Shown: piece after piece, positions 46,983-56,192 of the stretch
Position numbering within the stretch: the stretch's first letter is position 1
Layout of the letters: each line of letters opens with the position of its first letter
Assembly: GCA_965198005.1 (NCBI GenBank)
Contig: CBDAOI010000004.1
Location: forward strand, 608,001-672,000
Length of the DNA stretch: 64,000 nt
Direction of reading: 5' to 3'
Origin: Spirochaetia bacterium
GTDB lineage: Bacteria > Spirochaetota > Spirochaetia > SZUA-6 > Bin103
Notes under the pieces: generated by a model
Seen by the model: only the letters and a program-made list of their open reading frames with translations
Told to the model about the DNA's origin: nothing
The model's database searches: none
Translations under genes and position numbers: made by a program

Positions 46983-47912
46983 GTGGGAAAGACGGGGAGC
47001 GTTCGCGAGCCAAAGCGGCGTGCCGGGCTGGCTCATTTCTTTGCCAGGATGTGGCGGGAAAAGCCACTGGGTACGATGAGCGGGATAGTTGTCCTGATGC
47101 TGGTTCTTATCAGCATCTTCGCCGATGTGCTGGCTCCCTATGGCTATACGGAAGTGAATCCGGCAGACCGCCTGCAGGGCGCATCGGTGCAGCATCCGCT
47201 GGGCACCGACCAGTTGGGGCGGGACCTGTTGAGCCGCCTGCTCTACGGGGCTCGTATTTCGCTCATTGTCGGTTTGTGCGCCACTTCCATCACGGTTGCG
47301 GTAGCCGTCCTGGTGGGCGGAAGTTCAGGATTCGTCGGTGGAAAACTGGACCTGGTCGTGCAGCGGGTGGTCGATGCCTGGATGGCGTTTCCGGGACTGC
47401 TGCTGTTGTTGACGGTAATGTCGATCGTGGGCCGGGGAATGCTGCAGATCATAGTGGTGCTCGGCATAACCGGGGGCATTCCCGCGTCGCGGATAGTGCG
47501 CGGAGCGGTGATCGGGGTCAAGGAGAGCACCTATTTTCTGGCGGCAGAGTCCATTGGCCGCAAGCAATGGGAGACGCTCGTGCGGCACGTGCTGCCCAAC
47601 ATCGCGGCTCCGGTAGTCATCATCTTCAGTATCAACATCGGAGCGGTGATCATCGCCGAGGCCAGCTTGAGTTTCCTGGGATTCGGTCTGCCGCTGGAGG
47701 TTCCGAGCTGGGGCAGTCTGCTCAGCCGAGACGGGCGCAAGTACATGGAGCAGGCGCCCTGGCTGGCGCTGTGGCCCGGTCTGTGCCTGACCATTCTGGT
47801 CTACAGCCTGAACATGTTCGGTGATGCGCTGCGCGACCTGCTCGACCCCCGGCTGAAGGGCGGCATGGGTCGTATCGGCACGCACGGCGTGCCAACTAGG
47901 CGCGGCGGGTGA
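46983..47912 (+). CDS. ABC permease, DppC-like
   Basis: HPLGTDQLGRDLLSRLLYGARISL, RHVLPN, EASLSFLG, GDALRDLLDPR. Confidence 0.93.
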   Translation: MGKTGSVREPKRRAGLAHFFARMWREKPLGTMSGIVVLMLVLISIFADVLAPYGYTEVNPADRLQGASVQHPLGTDQLGRDLLSRLLYGARISLIVGLCATSITVAVAVLVGGSSGFVGGKLDLVVQRVVDAWMAFPGLLLLLTVMSIVGRGMLQIIVVLGITGGIPASRIVRGAVIGVKESTYFLAAESIGRKQWETLVRHVLPNIAAPVVIIFSINIGAVIIAEASLSFLGFGLPLEVPSWGSLLSRDGRKYMEQAPWLALWPGLCLTILVYSLNMFGDALRDLLDPRLKGGMGRIGTHGVPTRRGG

Positions 47913-48710: not shown

Positions 48711-48965
48711 ATGAAGAATATCACAGTTTCTGTGGATGAAGACGTCTATCACAGAGCACGGATGTGGGCTGCCGAGCGACGGACTTCGGTTTCGGCGATA
48801 GTGGGGCAGATGCTGATAGAATTCGCGGCCGAGGAGACTCGCTTCGAGCGGCTGCGTCGTGAGGAGTGCGAGTTGCGGGAACGCCTCCGGAGCCGTGGGG
48901 TCAGGTTCGCGGCATCCGACCGGCTCTCACGGGATGCGCTGCACGATCGCCATGCGCTTCGTTGA
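48711..48965 (+). CDS. Ribbon-helix-helix type antitoxin
   Basis: MKNITVSVDEDVYHRAR..AA...TSVSA; SRDALHDR; overlaps the PIN gene. Confidence 0.85.
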   Translation: MKNITVSVDEDVYHRARMWAAERRTSVSAIVGQMLIEFAAEETRFERLRREECELRERLRSRGVRFAASDRLSRDALHDRHALR

Positions 48966-49371
48966 CACCAACGTTCTGCTCTACAGCGTGAGCACGGATC
49001 CGGCGGAAGCGGGCAAAGCCGCCGCCGCGGTTGGGTTGCTGGCCGACGAGGACCTCTGTCTCTCCGTTCAAGTGCTGCAGGAGTTCTATGTCCAAGCCAC
49101 GCGGCTGACTCGCGCCGATCCCCTGCCGCACGATGACGCGGTCGCGTTCATCGACACATGGCAGCGATTCCGGGTGCAGGAGATGTCGGTTGCGCTGATG
49201 CTGGAGGCGCTCGCGGCGGCCAGGCGCTGGCGCGTGTCCTACTGGGATGCCGCGATTGTCGAAGCGGCGAGGATACTCGACTGTGACGAGTTGTTGACCG
49301 AAGACCTGAATGCCGGTCAGGTGTTCGACGGGGTGACGGTGGTCAATCCGTTTCCCCGACTTGATCGTTGA
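48952..49371 (+). CDS. PIN-domain (VapC) toxin, apparently intact
   Basis: FVDTNVLLY, SVQVLQEFY, SYWDAAIV, LLTEDL, VVNPF. Confidence 0.9.
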   Translation: MRFVDTNVLLYSVSTDPAEAGKAAAAVGLLADEDLCLSVQVLQEFYVQATRLTRADPLPHDDAVAFIDTWQRFRVQEMSVALMLEALAAARRWRVSYWDAAIVEAARILDCDELLTEDLNAGQVFDGVTVVNPFPRLDR

Positions 49372-49374
49372 CGC

Positions 49375-49580
49375 GACATCACCGCGCCGGTCATCGTCGT
49401 GTTCTCGATCACCATCGGCGGCGTCATCATCGCGAGGGGCGCAGTTTCATGGAGATGGCGCCGCGCCTGGCGATGTGGCCCGGTCTTGCGCTGACTGCTA
49501 CGGTTTACAGTTGAACTTGTTCGGCGACGCGGTGCGGGACCTGCTTGATCCGAGGTGGCGAGGTGGCGTGGGCCGTCATG
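49375..49580 (+). pseudogene. Degraded 3' end of a DppC-like permease paralogue
   Basis: ITAPVIVVFSITIGGVII, WPGLAL, NLFGDAVRDLLDPR; resembles the 3' part of 46983-47912 with indels. Confidence 0.75.
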
Positions 49581-49650
49581 GCCGTCAATCCCCGCTTGCC
49601 GCTTCAGGCGATTTCTCCGATGATAGGAGGGACCGAGCATCCGGGAGGAG

Positions 49651-50610
49651 GTGGACGTGGCGCCACGTTCGAGTTGGAAGGGATTCGTCAGGCTGAGTCT
49701 CGTGTCGGTGCCGGTAAAGGCGTATACCGCCAACGATACCGGCGTGCAGGTACGCCTCAATCAGCTCCACGCCGAGTGCAACAGCCGCATCGCCTACAAG
49801 AAGGTGTGTCCCCAGCACGGCGAGGTAGACAGCGACCAGATCACCCGCGGCTACGAGTACGCCAAGGGGCAGTACGTCGTGATCGACGATGACGAGCTGG
49901 ACAAGCTGCGCACCGCGGGTGACCGCTCGGTCAACATCGAGGGGTTCATGGCCCCGGGGGAGCTGGACGCCGTGTACCACGCCGGCCGCACCTACTATCT
50001 GGTGCCGGACGGTGCGGTCGGGCAGAAGCCGTACGCGCTGCTGGTGCGGAGCATGCAGGAAAACAACGTGCACGCGCTGGCCCAGGTGGTGATCGCGCGG
50101 CGCGAGCAGCTCGTGCTGCTGCGCCCGATCGGCAACGTGCTGGCGATGACCATGCTCAACCACCAGATGAAGGTGAAGGCGGCCGCGTCGTTCGAGGACG
50201 AGGTGGTGGCGGCCGACTGCAGCGCCGCGGAGGTACAGCTCGCCGCGACGCTGATCAACGCCTCCCGGCTGCAGGAGTTCGATTACGCCCGATACACCGA
50301 CCGCTACGTCGAGAAGCTCACGGAGCTGATCCAGCTCAAGGTCGAGGGCGAGGAAGTGGTGCAGGTGGCCGATACCGAGGAGCCGAAGATCATCAATCTG
50401 ATGGAGGCGCTGAAGAAGAGCGTGGCCGAGGCGCAGGGGGCGGCGCCGGCGAGCGACGCGGCGGCGGACGCGGCGGACGGTAAGGCCGCGCCTGCGCGCG
50501 GCGCGGCGGGTGGCCGGAAGCAGGCGCCGAGCGCCAAGGCCCGGCGGCCGCCGGAGGCGGCGGAAGCGGACGTGGCCGCGGCCGCGGACCGCGCGCAGCA
50601 GGCCGGGTAG
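49651..50610 (+). CDS. ku: NHEJ end-binding protein Ku
   Basis: PRSSWKG..RLSLVSVPVK, LNQLH..CNSRI, GYEYAKGQYV, YYLVPD, KPYALL, NLMEALKKS; GGAGGAGG SD. Confidence 0.95.
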   Translation: MDVAPRSSWKGFVRLSLVSVPVKAYTANDTGVQVRLNQLHAECNSRIAYKKVCPQHGEVDSDQITRGYEYAKGQYVVIDDDELDKLRTAGDRSVNIEGFMAPGELDAVYHAGRTYYLVPDGAVGQKPYALLVRSMQENNVHALAQVVIARREQLVLLRPIGNVLAMTMLNHQMKVKAAASFEDEVVAADCSAAEVQLAATLINASRLQEFDYARYTDRYVEKLTELIQLKVEGEEVVQVADTEEPKIINLMEALKKSVAEAQGAAPASDAAADAADGKAAPARGAAGGRKQAPSAKARRPPEAAEADVAAAADRAQQAG

Positions 50611-50627
50611 CCGGCGGAGCGCGCCCC

Positions 50628-51554
50628 ATCGACCGCCTGCCGGCGACGTTCGCCCCGATGCTGGCCAAGCCGGGCCGGCCGTTCGATTCGGCGCGCCACC
50701 TGTATGAGGTGAAGTGGGACGGCATCCGGGCCATCGCCCTGGTCGAGGGCGGCGGCTACCGGCTGCTGAGCCGCACCGGGCACGACCTCACCGACCGCTA
50801 CTCCGAACTGGCCGCACTCGCCCGGCTGCCCGCCGGCACCATGCTGGACGGTGAGGTGGTGGTGCTGGAGAACGGGATCCCCAACTTCGAGGCGGCGTTG
50901 CGGCACCGCCGCCGGAGCGGTGCGGCGGCGTCCCAACCGGCTCCCCGGTACATGGTGTTCGACCTGCCGTACCGTTCGTTCCAGTCGACCATGGACCGGC
51001 CGCTGCTGGAGCGCAGGGCGCCGTTGCCGGAGCTGGTGGACGGCTGCCGTTCGCCTCTGGTGATCAGTTCCGACGGCTTGGTCGGCGCCGGCATCCGCTT
51101 CTATCGCGAGGTGTGCGCGCGCGGCATCGAAGGGGTGATGGCCAAGCGCGTCGACAGCCGCTACCTGCCGGGCAGGCGTACCGACGCCTGGATCAAGATC
51201 AAGCGGCGCCTGCATCTCAACTGCGTGGTGCTGGGATACTTGGACAAGGAGGGGGATGACTTTCAGAGTCTGATCGTGGCTACCGACCGGGGAAACGGGC
51301 TGCGCTACGCGGGCCGGGTCGGCACCGGATTCACCGCCGCCCAGCGCGGTGCGCTCAAGCGGGTGCTGGTGCGCCGGCGGCGCGCCACCGGGCTGCTGCC
51401 GGTGGCCGACCAGCCTGCCCTGCGGCAACTGCCGGACCCGGTGTGCTGGGTGGACCCGGTCGTGTTCTGCGTCGTCTCCTGCCTCGAATTCAGCAGTTCC
51501 GGGGTGATGCGGGCGCCGGTATTCGAGGGGCTGGTGGAGGAACCGGCGCCATGA
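50628..51554 (+). CDS. Stand-alone ATP-dependent DNA ligase (LigD/LigC-type NTase plus OB); start ATC 50628 or ATG 50658
   Basis: PMLA, EVKWDG, LDGEVV, MVFDL, EGVMAKR, WIKIK, YAGRVGTGF, MRAPVF. Confidence 0.92.
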   Translation: MDRLPATFAPMLAKPGRPFDSARHLYEVKWDGIRAIALVEGGGYRLLSRTGHDLTDRYSELAALARLPAGTMLDGEVVVLENGIPNFEAALRHRRRSGAAASQPAPRYMVFDLPYRSFQSTMDRPLLERRAPLPELVDGCRSPLVISSDGLVGAGIRFYREVCARGIEGVMAKRVDSRYLPGRRTDAWIKIKRRLHLNCVVLGYLDKEGDDFQSLIVATDRGNGLRYAGRVGTGFTAAQRGALKRVLVRRRRATGLLPVADQPALRQLPDPVCWVDPVVFCVVSCLEFSSSGVMRAPVFEGLVEEPAP

Positions 51555-52810
51555 ACGCGGACCCCGCGCCGCGGCTGCGCAACCGGGAGGTCGCCTTTAC
51601 CGGCCGCCTCGCCTCCATGACCCGCGACGAGGCCGCGGGCCGGGTGACCGCGGCCGGCGGCAGGGTGGTGGGCACGCCGGGTCCCGACACCGCGTGGCTG
51701 GTGGTGGGGCAGGGGGGCTGGCCGTTGCGCGGCGACGGCCGGCCGACCGCCAGCATGCTCCGCGCCCGCTCCCTCGAGCAGCAACCACGCGCGCGCCTGC
51801 AGGTGGTCTCCGAGACCCGGTTCCTGGAGCTGCTCGGCCTGGACGAGAAGGTGGAAGACCTGCAGCGCCTGTTCACCACCGTCCAGCTCGGCCGCATTCT
51901 CGAGCTGCCGACGCGGGAGCTTCGGACCTGGGTGCGGCGCGGGTTGATCCACCCGGTCAAGGTGGTGAATCGCCTGGCCTGGTTCGATTTTCGGGAAGTG
52001 GCGATGGCGCGCGCGCTCCACTCGCTGACCAGCGCCGGAGTATCGCCGGCGCGGATCAGCCGCAGCATCCGCGAGCTGTCGCGCTGGCTGCCGGACGCGC
52101 AGCGCATGTTGACCCGGTTGGAGACCTTCGCCCACGGCCGCGGCCTCGGCATCCGCCTGCAGGACGGACGGCTGGCCGACCCCGCGGGCCAGTTCCTGCT
52201 CGACCTGCATCGCGGCACGTCCGACCCGGCGGGGCCGTTGATTCGCGCGTTCGATCCGCGCGCGGCGGCCGCGGATCACGCTGATGCCGCACCCGGCGCC
52301 GCGGACGGGGAGGGGGACGCCGCTTCGGCAGCGCCCGGCGGGGTGGCCGAGGAGCTGTTCGGGCAGGGGGTGCAGGCGGAAGATCGCGGCCAGTGGGAGC
52401 ATGCGCTGAGCCTCTACGAGCGGTCCCTGGAGGCGGGCGGACCCGACCCGGAAACCTGCTTCAACCTGGGCAACGTGCTGTACGAACTGGACCGCAAACG
52501 GGACGCGGCCAAGCGCTACCTGCAGGCGGTCGAGCTCGATCCCGAGTACGTCGAGTCGCTCAACAACCTCGGCAACGCGCTGGCCGATAGCGGCTGGCTG
52601 ACGGAGGCGGTCAATGCCTACCGGCGCGCGCTGCGCGTGGAGCCGGACTACGCCGACGCGCACAGCAACCTGGCGGAGACCCTGGTGTACCTCGGCCGCT
52701 ACGACGATGCGCGCGAGCACTGGCACGCCTACCTGCGGCTCGACCCGCACAGCTCCTGGGCGCGCGCGATTCGGGAACTGATCCGCAACCTCCCCACCGG
52801 CCCCGGCTGA
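51551..52810 (+). CDS. BRCT - MerR-type HTH - TPR protein
   Basis: VAFTGRLASMTRDEA...AAGG.V...TAWLVVG...VSETRF (BRCT); LRTWVRRGLIHP...FDFREV (MerR-like); FNLGNVLY, NNLGNAL, AHSNLA (TPR); ATGA overlap with the ligase. Confidence 0.85.
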   Translation: MNADPAPRLRNREVAFTGRLASMTRDEAAGRVTAAGGRVVGTPGPDTAWLVVGQGGWPLRGDGRPTASMLRARSLEQQPRARLQVVSETRFLELLGLDEKVEDLQRLFTTVQLGRILELPTRELRTWVRRGLIHPVKVVNRLAWFDFREVAMARALHSLTSAGVSPARISRSIRELSRWLPDAQRMLTRLETFAHGRGLGIRLQDGRLADPAGQFLLDLHRGTSDPAGPLIRAFDPRAAAADHADAAPGAADGEGDAASAAPGGVAEELFGQGVQAEDRGQWEHALSLYERSLEAGGPDPETCFNLGNVLYELDRKRDAAKRYLQAVELDPEYVESLNNLGNALADSGWLTEAVNAYRRALRVEPDYADAHSNLAETLVYLGRYDDAREHWHAYLRLDPHSSWARAIRELIRNLPTGPG

Positions 52811-52834
52811 CGCCCGCCTCGCGGTGCGCCTCAT

Positions 52835-54010
52835 TCAGCCCGGATCATGGGTCATCTCCAGGATATCGGAGAATGACCGGTCCGGGGTGAGCGCGCGGAA
52901 AAAGGGCTCGCACGGCAGACACAGCACGCCGCGTTCCCGGATGCGGCGCGGACCGCGGTACAGCAGCAATGGTGTTGCCATGGGGTAGTCCTGCGTGAAG
53001 GCCCGCAGCCCGCTGAAGTCGCGCGGATGGAGTGTCGCGCTGTGCTTGACTTCGATGGCGAACAGCCCGCTCTCCCCGTAAAGCACGAGGTCGACCTCGT
53101 TGCCGGCGCGGGTGCGCCAGAAGCTGAGGGTGTCGTCGCGGTTGGCGTAGGCGAGCCAGGCTCGCAGATGCTGGGCAACCAACCCCTCGAGAGCTGCTCC
53201 CGCAAGTTCTTCGGGGCGGTCGAGCGGCCCCCGCGGCCGCAGCGAACGAAACAACCCGGCGTCCATCAGGTACAGCTTGGGGTGCGTGGTCATGCGCCGC
53301 CGCGCGCGCCGGGTGAACACCGGCAGGGTGAACGCCAGCAGCAGGTCGCGCAGCACCTCGACGTAACCCGTCGCCACCTTGCGCTGCACCTCGCACTCAC
53401 GGGCGAGATTGGACACGTTCAGAACCCCGCCGTGACTGAAGCTCACGGCTTCGAGAAAGCGAGAAAACGCGCCGATGTTCCGCACCAGCCCTTCCGCCTG
53501 TACCTCCTCGCGTACGTAGAGGGCGGCGTATGAGCGCAGCGCGGCGTCCGGATCGGGCGCGTCGACGACCAGCGGTATCAAACCCAGCGTCAGGGCGCGG
53601 TTCAGGCTGAAGCCGGCACCCAGCTCCGCCGCCATGAACGGATGCATGGTCGTGAGCACCGCGCGCCCGGCGAGCAGATCCACGCCGGTGCGATGCAGCT
53701 TGCGGGCGCTGGATCCGGTGAGCACGAAGCGCCGACCCTTGTCGAGCTCGATCAGTTGGTGCACGACCTGCAGCAGTTCCGGCACCCGCTGAACTTCGTC
53801 GATGACGATCGGATTGCTGCCGGGATTCGCCGCGACGGTGTGTCGCAGCCGCTCCGGCGCCGCCCCGTAGAAGCGCGTGTTCTCCGGATCGATCAGGTCG
53901 ATTATCAGGGCCTCCGGGTAGCGGTCGCGCAGCCAGGTCGACTTGCCCGTACCGCGCGGGCCGAAGAGGAAGTAGCTCGCCGGCGGCGGCCGGTAGAATC
54001 GCGCCAACAT
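52835..54010 (-). CDS. AAA_14 ATPase with DUF4143 domain
   Basis: LFGPRGTGKST, IDEVQR, LTGSSARKL, LAGRA, HPKLYLMDAG, WRT..G.EVD, IEVK. Confidence 0.9.
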   Translation of the reverse strand: MLARFYRPPPASYFLFGPRGTGKSTWLRDRYPEALIIDLIDPENTRFYGAAPERLRHTVAANPGSNPIVIDEVQRVPELLQVVHQLIELDKGRRFVLTGSSARKLHRTGVDLLAGRAVLTTMHPFMAAELGAGFSLNRALTLGLIPLVVDAPDPDAALRSYAALYVREEVQAEGLVRNIGAFSRFLEAVSFSHGGVLNVSNLARECEVQRKVATGYVEVLRDLLLAFTLPVFTRRARRRMTTHPKLYLMDAGLFRSLRPRGPLDRPEELAGAALEGLVAQHLRAWLAYANRDDTLSFWRTRAGNEVDLVLYGESGLFAIEVKHSATLHPRDFSGLRAFTQDYPMATPLLLYRGPRRIRERGVLCLPCEPFFRALTPDRSFSDILEMTHDPG

Positions 54011-54095
54011 GGGGCGACGCTATCCGCTGTGTGACAATCTGTCCAGTGCGATGCCGTTTTGGGTCGAAAAAAGGCATTTCGATACCCATAATGCG

Positions 54096-56192
54096 TCAGC
54101 GGCTGGCGAGATACTCCTGCAGGCGCTCGATCGCGGGGGCGAAGTCCTGCGGTTCGGTCAGCGTGGCGCGGAACCGGTCGCCGCGCCGCGCCAGCAGGGA
54201 CGGGGTGGTGCCGATGGTGTACCGGCTCGGGTGCAGGTCGCCATCCAGCTCGTCCCAGTCCAGCGGCATCGACACGCAGGCGCCCGGCACCGGCCGCACC
54301 ACGTACGGCGGTACCACGGTGGCGCTCCGGCGGTTCTGGAGGAAGTCGACGTATACCTTGCCGCCGCGGCCGCGCGGCAGCCGTTCGACGCTGGCGAGGT
54401 CGGGCTGCTCGCGCGCCACCACGCGCGCCACGGCCTCCATGAACAGGCGCGCCTGATCGAAGCTGTAGCCGGGCACCAGCGGCAGGTACAGGTGCAGCCC
54501 GGAGGCGCCGGAGGTCTTGACCGCAGGCTCCAGACCGATGCCGCGCAGCACCTTGCCGGCGGTCCGCGCGACCCGTACCGCCGCCGCGAAGCCCGCCTCC
54601 TTGGCGTCCAGGTCCAGCACCGCGAAGTCGGGGCTCTCCAGGCTGCCGCGCCGCGACAGCCACGGATGCAGCTCGATGCTGCCGAGGTTGATCAGGTAGA
54701 TCAGGGTCTCGAGGCCGTTGCACACGAACTGCCGGTCGTGCGCGGCGTCGACCTCCACCAGTTCCACCCAGTCCGGCACGCCGGCGGGGGCCTGGCGCTG
54801 GAAGAACGACTTGCCCTCGATGCCGTCGGGAAAGCGGTTCAGGTGCACCGGCCGGTCGCGCAGGTAGGGCAGCAGGTACTCGGCCACCTGCTCGTAGAAG
54901 CGCAGCAGGTCGCCCTTGGTGTACCCGTCGCGCGGCCAGTAGACCTTGTCCAGGTTGCTCAGCGGGAAGCGTGCGCGCCGCCGGCGGCGGTGGCTGGCGG
55001 CGCGCGCCAGCGCGGACTGCAGCTCGAGGCCGCGCGCGGCGTGGTCCGCGCGCAACCGGATCCGGCGCCAGTCGGCCTGCGGGCCGGCACGGTAGCCGCT
55101 GTGCGCGCGTTTCGCCACCAAGCCGTGAAACCCGGCCGCCGCCGCGGAGGAGGCGAGCTGTTCGCCGCTGCCGGTGACGTGGTCGGCGTAGAGCAGCGTC
55201 CGCATCTCGGGAAGCAGGGCGCGCAGCAGTTGCTTGCGCTCCAGCAACGGCACCGCGCGCAGGTCCCATTCGTCGTAGTGCAGCAGGTCGAACGCGTAGT
55301 AGGTCACGGGCGCGCCGGCGCCGCCGGCCGCCCAGGCGTCGAGCGCGGCGCGGGACGGACGTCCGTGTGCGTCGAGCGCCACCAGCACGCCGTCCAGCAG
55401 CGCCTGCTCCGCCCGCACCCGAGCCAGATCGGCCGCCAGCACCGACTGGGCGCGCGGGTGCAACTCCAGCTCCGATCCGTCCGCGGCGGCCAGCGCCGGC
55501 TGCGCTCCCTGCACGCAGGCGAACGCCCGCAGCCCCTCGAACTCCAGCTCGAAGATCCAGTCCGGATCGGAGAACTGACCGGCGGCTGCCCCGGCGCGCA
55601 TCGCCTGCGGCCGGCGCGGCAACGGCGCAGCGCAGGCGCGCGCATCCAGCACCGGCAGCGGCTCGTCCGCGCCGCGGGCGTACCGGTCACGCGCCTTGAA
55701 CAGCAGCCACTCGTCCGCGCCGCCGGTACGCACCAGGTGCCACTCGCCGCGCAGCCGGCGCCCGCGCAGGATCACCTTCACTTCGCCCGTGGCGAGCGCC
55801 GCTTCCAGCCCGGCGGCCCGCACCACCTCGTACGACCCGCGGTCCCAGATCAGCATCGTCCCGGCGCCGTACTGGCCCGGCGGGATCACCCCCTCGAACG
55901 TCCGGTAGCGCAGGGGATGGTCCTCGGTCCGGACCGCCAGGTGCTTGACCTGCGGGTCGTAGGAGAAGCCGCGCGGCACCGCCCAGCACACCAGCACGCC
56001 GCCGGCGGCCAGGCGCAGATCGTAGTGCAGGCGGCGCGCCTCGTGGCGGTGGATCACGAACGTACCGGCCGTCTCCACCGCCTCCGCGGCCTCCGGCGCC
56101 GCGGCCGGCGCGGGCTCGAACCGAGGCTCCGGCGTGCGGGGAAAGTCGCGCCGGGCGTTATACTCTGCTGGGGAGCGGGACATGCGGGCCAT
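54096..56192 (-). CDS. ligD: LigD-like protein: phosphoesterase - degenerate ligase - primase/polymerase
   Basis: PE: YNARRDF..TPEP, HEARRLHYDLRL, TEDHP; POL: NLDKVYWP, RFPDGI, VLDLD, KTSG..GLH, YVDFLQN; ligase motifs substituted. Confidence 0.9.
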   Translation of the reverse strand: MARMSRSPAEYNARRDFPRTPEPRFEPAPAAAPEAAEAVETAGTFVIHRHEARRLHYDLRLAAGGVLVCWAVPRGFSYDPQVKHLAVRTEDHPLRYRTFEGVIPPGQYGAGTMLIWDRGSYEVVRAAGLEAALATGEVKVILRGRRLRGEWHLVRTGGADEWLLFKARDRYARGADEPLPVLDARACAAPLPRRPQAMRAGAAAGQFSDPDWIFELEFEGLRAFACVQGAQPALAAADGSELELHPRAQSVLAADLARVRAEQALLDGVLVALDAHGRPSRAALDAWAAGGAGAPVTYYAFDLLHYDEWDLRAVPLLERKQLLRALLPEMRTLLYADHVTGSGEQLASSAAAAGFHGLVAKRAHSGYRAGPQADWRRIRLRADHAARGLELQSALARAASHRRRRRARFPLSNLDKVYWPRDGYTKGDLLRFYEQVAEYLLPYLRDRPVHLNRFPDGIEGKSFFQRQAPAGVPDWVELVEVDAAHDRQFVCNGLETLIYLINLGSIELHPWLSRRGSLESPDFAVLDLDAKEAGFAAAVRVARTAGKVLRGIGLEPAVKTSGASGLHLYLPLVPGYSFDQARLFMEAVARVVAREQPDLASVERLPRGRGGKVYVDFLQNRRSATVVPPYVVRPVPGACVSMPLDWDELDGDLHPSRYTIGTTPSLLARRGDRFRATLTEPQDFAPAIERLQEYLASR

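Follow-up and report, generated by a model that had tools for sequence, protein, structure and literature searches.

A ku–ligase–BMT gene cluster facing a LigD with a degenerate ligase module in a Spirochaetia genome: a probable non-canonical variant of bacterial end joining

The genes described here lie within a 64,000-nucleotide stretch of the genome of a Spirochaetia bacterium (GenBank assembly GCA_965198005.1, contig CBDAOI010000004.1), referred to below as the window, and point to a divided form of bacterial non-homologous end joining (NHEJ). Coordinates are positions within the window, with position 1 as its first letter. The ku gene (49651..50610, + strand) encodes a Ku protein of the bacterial homodimer type with 319 amino acids (TIGR02772, 244.9 bits against a cut-off of 150; PF02735, 139 bits against a cut-off of 25, E 2e-40). 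It is followed after 47 nt by the gene for a stand-alone LigD-type ATP-dependent DNA ligase (50658..51554, + strand; 298 amino acids), which consists of a nucleotidyltransferase (NTase) domain plus one for oligonucleotide binding (OB), with motifs I–VI intact. The TGA of the ligase gene is overlapped by the ATG of the next gene (ATGA at 51551–51554). This third gene, BMT (51551..52810, + strand; 419 amino acids), encodes a BRCT domain, a MerR-like winged helix–turn–helix (wHTH) and a TPR domain. On the opposite strand are an AAA_14/DUF4143 gene (52835..54010, − strand; identified by a Pfam scan) and the gene for a LigD variant of 698 amino acids (54096..56192, − strand), the 3′ end of which is separated from the BMT stop codon by 1285 nt. 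The LigD variant contains a 3′-phosphoesterase (PE) domain (residues 10–169), a dead NTase domain (residues 205–381) and a primase-polymerase (POL) domain (residues 411–675), with no OB domain. A preliminary description of this DNA had reported that ku, a complete ligase and a BRCT/helix–turn–helix/TPR gene are co-oriented, with ATGA coupling between the last two, and that a convergent PE-LIG-POL LigD lies about 1.3 kb away beyond the AAA_14/DUF4143 gene. All of these positions were found as claimed.

The two ligase modules were compared with that of Mycobacterium tuberculosis LigD (PDB entry 1VS0). The stand-alone ligase matches PF01068 (97.5 bits) and PF04679 (52.1 bits), both above the cut-off. 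Its best NCBIfam model is TIGR02779 (215.2 bits, narrowly below the cut-off of 227.75), and the LigC model NF006078 scores 98 bits. The Lys of its motif I (EVKWDG) aligns with Lys481 of the M. tuberculosis protein, and motifs III (LDGEV), IV (EGVMAK), V (WIKIK) and VI are also retained. The NTase domain of the LigD variant (55038..55610, − strand) reads ELEFEG at motif I against EGKWDG in 1VS0, with Glu at the position of the catalytic Lys and Glu at that of the Asp. The loss extends to motifs III, IV and V: motif III (LDGVL) has Val in place of Glu, motif IV (HGLVAK) has His in place of Glu and motif V (WRRIR) has Arg in place of both Lys residues. The earlier claim that the ligase domain of LigD is dead is therefore confirmed by this alignment. 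A further loss had been overlooked. LigD is wholly without an OB domain (motif VI; PF04679): no PF04679 match was obtained, the motif VI columns are gapped and the spacing between NTase and POL is only about 30 residues. The protein also scores below the curated whole-protein cut-offs (NF004628, 530.8 bits against 895; TIGR02776, 351.7 bits against 373.2).

The flanking domains of LigD retain their active sites. In the PE domain (55668..56165, − strand; TIGR02777, 176.7 bits against a cut-off of 144), all six of the residues His42, His48, Asp50, Arg52, His84 and Tyr88 (Pseudomonas aeruginosa numbering) align with PDB entries 2LJ6 and 3N9B; these residues of the P. aeruginosa enzyme are listed as essential in the available part of PMC8656161. 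In the POL domain (54123..54962, − strand; PF21686, 270 bits; TIGR02778, 235 bits against 214.7), the Asp-x-Asp pair and the third Asp are kept, and the segments DLD, SGxxGLH and VD..QN align with PDB entries 2IRU and 2FAO.

The genome (4.9 Mb in four contigs, 90% complete) was found to contain one Ku, one LigD-type PrimPol and two PF01068 matches, both at this locus, with an NAD-dependent LigA gene on another contig. The genome-wide PF01068 scan of this 90% complete assembly gave no ATP-ligase domain beyond the pair at the locus. Because both matches lie there and that of LigD is dead, the enzyme encoded after ku is the sole intact ATP ligase found. A second stand-alone PrimPol gene (37–40% identity to LigD residues 410–690) is present in most relatives, with none in the window's genome.

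The dead state of the LigD module is shared widely. The motif I Lys is missing in all 22 LigD open frames of the order, that of the window included, and the motif IV Glu is also missing in 21 of them. A protein search with LigD residues 190–400 returned 79 clusters, 38 of which lack the OB domain and have dead motifs (37 without the motif I Lys and one that keeps the Lys and has lost motifs III–V); source names in this dead group include metagenome-assembled genomes of Planctomycetes and Spirochaetaceae. The remaining 41 clusters are ordinary LigDs of about 900 amino acids with every motif present. In a quick tree, 35 dead domains formed one split and 18 stand-alone ligases another, each with 100% SH-aLRT support, and the placement of these two groups relative to the active LigDs was not resolved. 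Conservation reaches 90% or more at 52 positions of the module across 33 dead-type clusters, and active LigDs share most of these positions. The positions that are invariant in active enzymes and altered in the dead type are the catalytic ones (K217E, D219E, R237P, E269V, F281R, E356H, R371A and K377R). With 199 of 210 pairs usable, the dN/dS ratio of the dead module came to about 0.46, against 0.32 in PE and 0.35 in POL; these are crude Nei–Gojobori estimates made at high GC on pairs that are not independent. The mean amino-acid identity was 60, 74 and 70%, respectively. Constraint on the dead module thus appears to be relaxed yet still purifying, and the dead state itself appears to be old and under selection.

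Co-variation between the two ligase modules was assessed in a sample comprising the window, 20 loci from genomes and 80 from metagenomes, in which 34 open frames matched the NTase region. Stand-alone ligases with all motifs intact account for 18 of these frames. Ten more are LigDs from loci that either contain a stand-alone ligase or are cut before it (L095), and all ten are dead and lack the OB domain. The other six are LigDs that lie beside Ku–BMT without a stand-alone ligase (L094, L109, L129, L138, L142 and L157); in every one of them motifs I, III, IV and V are intact. This co-variation is the strongest comparative argument that sealing may have been taken over by the small ligase. Since the LigDs without a separate ligase are intact (6/6) and those in ligase-bearing loci are dead, sealing in trans by the small ligase can be regarded as well supported by comparison. 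The division of end processing and sealing between two proteins, which the preliminary description had proposed, is backed by this contrast (10/10 against 6/6), by the conservation of the dead LigD and by its intact PE and POL domains.

Gene content and order were analysed in 41 genomes from the window's order, its own genome among them, with E < 1e-50 taken to define a BMT orthologue. BMT orthologues are present in 25 of the 41: the window's genus contributes nine (of 11 genomes), a sister genus 11 (of 13) and two other families five (of five). The three families with BMT also have LigD orthologues (22/23 genomes when the window's is left aside, 3/3 and 2/2), and the 12 genomes that represent the order's five other families yielded neither a BMT nor a LigD orthologue. 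Gene order was read from 20 kb around 20 BMT matches. Ku–Lig–BMT occurs in the same order and orientation in 20/20 of these related loci, and the ligase directly follows ku in 21 genomes. The lig–BMT junction measures −4 to +4 nt (a 4 nt overlap or a 1–4 nt gap) in 20 of 23 loci; stop-finding overshot in the remaining three. LigD is convergent within 10 kb in nine of the 20 loci, seven of them in the window's genus and two in another family. The predicted co-occurrence of Ku, stand-alone ligase, BMT and Lys-less LigD in other genomes is thus borne out by the invariant Ku–Lig–BMT order and by the three families that LigD and BMT orthologues share.

The AAA_14/DUF4143 gene was present in none of the 20 related loci. 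It was ruled out as a member of the system on this ground and appears to be a local insertion. In its place, downstream of LigD, five relatives of the same genus have a PhyH dioxygenase gene (Pfam-confirmed in two), with coordinates of 10895–11680 in L025 and 10740–11567 in L028.

The MerR-like wHTH of BMT (51875..52075, + strand) is internal rather than N-terminal and matches MerR_1 (PF13411) over residues 109–175 with 33.8 bits against a cut-off of 21.6. The TPR domain (52358..52786, + strand; residues ~270–412) comprises about four to five repeats (TPR_2, TPR_11 and TPR_1, E 4e-25 to 5e-20). The BRCT domain (51575..51832, + strand) is a weak match to PF00533, scoring 18.7 bits on the protein alone (cut-off 21.3) against 22.2 bits in a whole-genome scan, in which LigA and BMT were the only two genes matched. 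In a family alignment of 44 clusters, PF00533 was detected in 34 at E values up to 0.01 (best 1.6e-10) and MerR_1 in all 44. The conserved N-terminal block reads FTGRLASMTR.EA...GG...T.LVVGQ.GWPL..DG and the MerR-like block reads LFTT.QL.RIL......IR.W.R.GLI.P......FDF..V..AR.L. The latter is followed by a short hairpin-like stretch, also conserved (L.VRL.DG.LA.P.GQL.FDF), a variable linker and then the TPRs. An apparent ligase–BMT fusion of 620 amino acids (P0009) was rejected: its gene call is frameshifted, and what lies between and behind its domains is out-of-frame read-through. No longer fused forms of the BMT N-terminus were found, which is weak evidence.

A profile search of the PDB with the whole BMT protein was dominated by TPR matches. 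With the N-terminal 240 residues, weak matches were obtained to the BRCT domain of RFC1 (E 0.025), to GlnR (PDB entry 4R4E; E 0.05) and to the BRCT domain of LigA (E 0.1–0.2). BRCT domains of the RFC1/LigA class bind DNA ends, including the 5′-phosphate. The BMT N-terminus has in common with those of LigA and RFC1 p140, its weak best PDB matches, the pattern TG...R.EA...GG...T..LV.G; unlike them, the sub-clade of the window's BMT lacks the basic residue before the conserved Thr, and the E values of 0.025–0.2 keep the likeness tentative. GlnR is the nearest solved MerR sequence, with a winged HTH whose MerR_1 pattern is also found in BMT. Unlike MerR regulators, BMT has no sequence-recognizable long dimerization helix or effector domain, and its wHTH lies between BRCT and TPR domains; the Pfam scan of BMT listed no MerR-DNA-bind match.

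Within the sampled phylum, the BMT family is confined to the window's order, the BMT N-terminus having given no match in 400 other genomes of the phylum. A metagenome scan returned at least 580 BMT relatives, from which 80 loci were kept. An NHEJ gene is present in 19 of these 80, and ku or lig lies directly upstream on the same strand in 16 of the 61 loci with at least 900 nt of upstream sequence. The neighbours in 20 non-NHEJ loci include genes for acyl-CoA dehydrogenase, DUF2760 with an Hsp70-like protein, CNNM/metallophosphatase, purine synthesis, UDG-family and AP_endonuc_2-fold proteins. BRCT-less MerR–TPR paralogues recur beside DUF2760 plus Hsp70-like (DUF3731) genes or acyl-CoA dehydrogenase genes (L110, L116, L131; L104, L108, L139, L156). 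Two BRCT-bearing members away from ku (L087 and L089) have a UDG-family or AP_endonuc_2-fold gene directly upstream, and these neighbourhoods may be further settings of DNA repair.

The NHEJ-linked genes formed two groups in a tree of 100 MerR–TPR cores. One, with 27 NHEJ-linked rows out of 34, contains the window and every BRCT-bearing member. The second consists of 14 rows without BRCT, and all 12 of those with known context follow ku. The NHEJ label required six changes on this tree against a shuffled mean of 30.9, a contrast that is inflated by near-copies. Outside the phylum, Sinorhizobium meliloti pSymB carries a row of ligD2 (motif I intact), ku2 and a gene for a BMT homologue of 361 amino acids. 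This homologue was aligned with the BMT family by hhalign with a probability of 100% (E 1.8e-41, 344 columns, N-terminus included); Pfam detects only its TPRs, and the recognition-helix region of its wHTH contains deletions. An xth gene (exodeoxyribonuclease III; L180, 6655–7428) lies about 650 nt downstream, with an unannotated gap between. On a Paraburkholderia plasmid, an annotated Ku gene is followed by that of a shorter protein with TPRs, which shows 30% identity to BMT in its match to residues 130–398. Plasmid matches beyond Sinorhizobium, Ensifer and Paraburkholderia were TPR-only.

Several observations weigh against reading the four genes as parts of one system. In the sister genus LigD lies 0.2–1.7 Mb from ku–lig–BMT, outside the locus in 11/11 cases, so that the four genes do not form one locus everywhere. 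One relative (G014; 95% complete, two contigs) has Ku–Lig and a dead LigD and gave no BMT orthologue with the query used; given this genome, BMT appears not to be indispensable. The BRCT domain is missing from the sister genus (11 loci), where the MerR part directly follows the ligase stop and BRCT appears to have been lost, and from the second Ku-linked clade. Among the metagenome relatives with enough flanking sequence, 45 of 61 do not adjoin NHEJ genes. Further ATP ligases are present in several relatives and, because of this and of the 90% completeness of the window's genome, another ligase may have been missed there. The dN/dS estimates are, as stated, crude. The preliminary description had offered BMT as an adaptor or regulator in a four-component system; an adaptor role and a single machine of four proteins could not be established in view of G014 and of the absence of BRCT from the sister genus and the second clade. 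In G014 (L176, L178), a convergent altronate/galactarate dehydratase gene comes after lig.

The unlinked LigD of the sister genus would be expected if the two enzymes served separate pathways, with the small ligase as a LigC-like excision-repair or back-up enzyme, the dead-ligase LigD as a stand-alone end processor and no joint machine. A precedent for such a use exists in mycobacteria, where base excision repair employs stand-alone ATP ligases together with AEP polymerases (PMC5663958, in the portion available). We consider separate pathways improbable, since the small ligase is best described by the NHEJ LigD module TIGR02779 (215 bits) and not by LigC NF006078 (98 bits), directly follows ku in 21 genomes and is present exactly where the ligase of LigD is dead. 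Little weight is likewise given to hitch-hiking, in which BMT would belong to a broad housekeeping MerR–TPR family without a DNA-repair role and would owe its position to chance linkage. The 45 of 61 metagenome relatives away from NHEJ genes and the loss of BMT in G014 are what hitch-hiking would predict; the adjacency to NHEJ genes in two separate clades (six tree changes against a shuffled 30.9, with inflation by near-copies), the Ku adjacency seen also in Alpha- and Betaproteobacteria and the tightly coupled lig–BMT junction argue against it. BMT is a credible NHEJ-linked factor on these comparisons.

A transcriptional role for BMT was considered from the sequence upstream of ku. The target promoters of MerR regulators have an over-long spacer of 19–20 nt that holds a palindromic operator. 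In relatives from two families (L025–L032, L029 and L044), a promoter-like TTGAC(A/T)-N17-TAGCTT is conserved upstream of ku. The spacer here is 17 nt, and neither a shared palindrome nor a MerR-type operator was found upstream of ku in the relatives. In the sister genus, an extended −10-like TGCTACAAT occurs upstream of ku instead. In the window, the region directly upstream of ku (49370–49590) repeats the 3′ end of an OppC/DppC-type permease gene (46983–47912) in degenerate form, spread over three frames and with a deletion; because of this duplicate, the window lacks the promoter-like site of its relatives.

BMT might be only a MerR-type transcription factor, autoregulated and switching ku–lig on in stress or stationary phase, with no physical part in repair. 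Its MerR_1 wHTH is the best-conserved non-TPR domain (44/44 members), and most members of the family occur in unrelated gene contexts, like general regulators. The site upstream of ku, with its 17 nt spacer and without a shared palindrome, does not have the 19–20 nt MerR architecture, and the BMT gene is co-directional and translationally coupled rather than divergent. In S. meliloti the BMT homologue comes right after ku2, the regulator of which is stated to be unknown in the available part of PMC6379672; according to the same text, ku2 is induced by heat and stationary phase and its regulator is not RpoE2, RpoH1/2 or RelA. The S. meliloti homologue, however, has deletions in the recognition helix, and its MerR part is undetected by Pfam. 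The N-terminal BRCT of BMT is moreover nearest, at weak E values, to the DNA-end-binding class of RFC1/LigA. On balance, we regard an exclusively transcriptional function as rather unlikely.

Transcripts of the locus were sought in metatranscriptome contigs from four runs of one study, with mismatch-free matches. The ku region (49883–50674) was covered in 4/4 runs and pieces of lig in 2/4, and one contig extends across the lig–BMT junction (51477–51682). The contigs reached neither most of BMT nor the AAA_14 gene nor LigD, which says nothing on silence. As the contigs have a depth of 2–8 and DNA carry-over is possible, these data are a weak hint that the locus is transcribed.

We consider it probable that the locus encodes a non-canonical form of bacterial NHEJ, made up of Ku, a processing LigD, a small ligase that seals in trans and BMT as a linked accessory. 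Ku would bind the broken ends. The 698-residue LigD variant would trim the ends with its 3′-phosphoesterase and fill gaps with its primase-polymerase. Because it has no adenylation Lys, no motifs III–V and no OB domain, LigD is predicted to be unable to seal; its ligase module would be a conserved pseudo-enzyme, possibly retained as a structural or docking element. The nick would be sealed in trans by the small ligase encoded after ku, and the translationally coupled BMT would act as a functionally linked accessory of Ku-dependent repair. We infer the structural role of the dead module, and any role of BMT, from sequence comparison. For BMT, an adaptor that binds DNA and protein at the break is plausible, if somewhat short of probable, and a local regulator of transcription of the ku operon is a possibility held with less confidence; we lean slightly towards the adaptor.

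The analogy with BRCT-scaffolded eukaryotic end joining, which the preliminary description had drawn, is speculation. In the eukaryotic systems (XRCC4–Lig4, Pol lambda/mu–Ku), BRCT domains mediate the contacts among scaffold, ligase or polymerase, and Ku. In its strongest form, BMT and its relatives would be a third core NHEJ factor, a DNA-end scaffold and counterpart of XRCC4/XLF/XRCC1 that is docked on the dead LigD module; this is doubtful on present comparisons. If it were true, the BRCT and wHTH would sit on DNA while the TPR held Ku, the ligase or LigD, and BMT would have let the ligase leave LigD in this lineage, with the dead module staying behind as a docking site.

Textbook accounts of bacterial NHEJ name two proteins, Ku and LigD. 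The locus shares with canonical Ku plus PE-LIG-POL LigD (Pseudomonas aeruginosa/Agrobacterium type) the type of Ku, the domain order and the intact PE and POL domains. It differs in that its LigD lacks the Lys, motifs III–V and the OB domain, that a separate ligase of 298 amino acids is present and that there is an extra conserved gene. Aniukwu et al. in 2008 are said to have found that NHEJ persists, through LigC, in mutants with a ligase-dead LigD. As with mycobacterial LigD plus LigC, a second ATP ligase would be able to seal here, with LigD supplying the other functions. Unlike the mycobacterial case, the dead state is natural and appears to be ancient and fixed, and the putative sealing ligase is of the LigD type and operonic with ku, and is not LigC. 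In mycobacteria, LigC and PrimC are termed back-up in the available part of PMC8068969.

A class of 'non-conventional NHEJ', in which LigD domains lie on separate proteins, was described by Sharda et al. (2020) (PMC7719229, available in part). The present arrangement resembles this class in that functions are spread over several polypeptides; no third gene is mentioned in the accessible text. As classification there is by domain presence alone, the genome analysed here would score as conventional (LIG, POL and PE in one protein) and its dead module would go unnoticed. The ligD2–ku2 row on S. meliloti pSymB likewise has a full-length BMT family member directly after ku2. In contrast to the window, that row lacks a stand-alone ligase, motif I of its LigD2 is intact (HEIKFDGYR) and the homologue is TPR-only in Pfam. 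Literature searches for LigD/NHEJ combined with BRCT, MerR/tetratricopeptide or inactive lysine, which did not cover supplements, gave no dead-ligase LigD and no BRCT/MerR/TPR partner. BRCT, TPR and MerR are not mentioned in the available parts of PMC11936186 or PMC6379672, nor is BRCT in that of bioRxiv 10.1101/2023.09.30.560322. Judged by its conservation, the arrangement appears to be a real, conserved and non-canonical variant of known NHEJ.

The locus may be viewed as an ancient counterpart, found in nature, of the experiment with ligase-dead LigD. Because the ligase of such LigDs is naturally dead, domain-based surveys and automatic annotation will miscall these genomes as having a complete LigD. 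That the pseudo-ligase module has been kept suggests that the ligase fold of LigD has a role other than catalysis. To this is added the evidence that a conserved, uncharacterized BRCT/helix–turn–helix/TPR gene travels with ku in several phyla. Since S. meliloti has a homologue and existing repair assays, accessory or regulatory factors in bacterial NHEJ are directly testable.

Upstream of the ku operon, a PIN-domain gene (48859–49371) comes after a small open reading frame (48711–48965) with a sub-threshold DUF6364 match. The two probably form a toxin–antitoxin pair that has been inserted, with the ABC transporter genes on one side and the ku operon on the other. The GC content is 58–66% across 44–50 kb of the window and 70–75% downstream.

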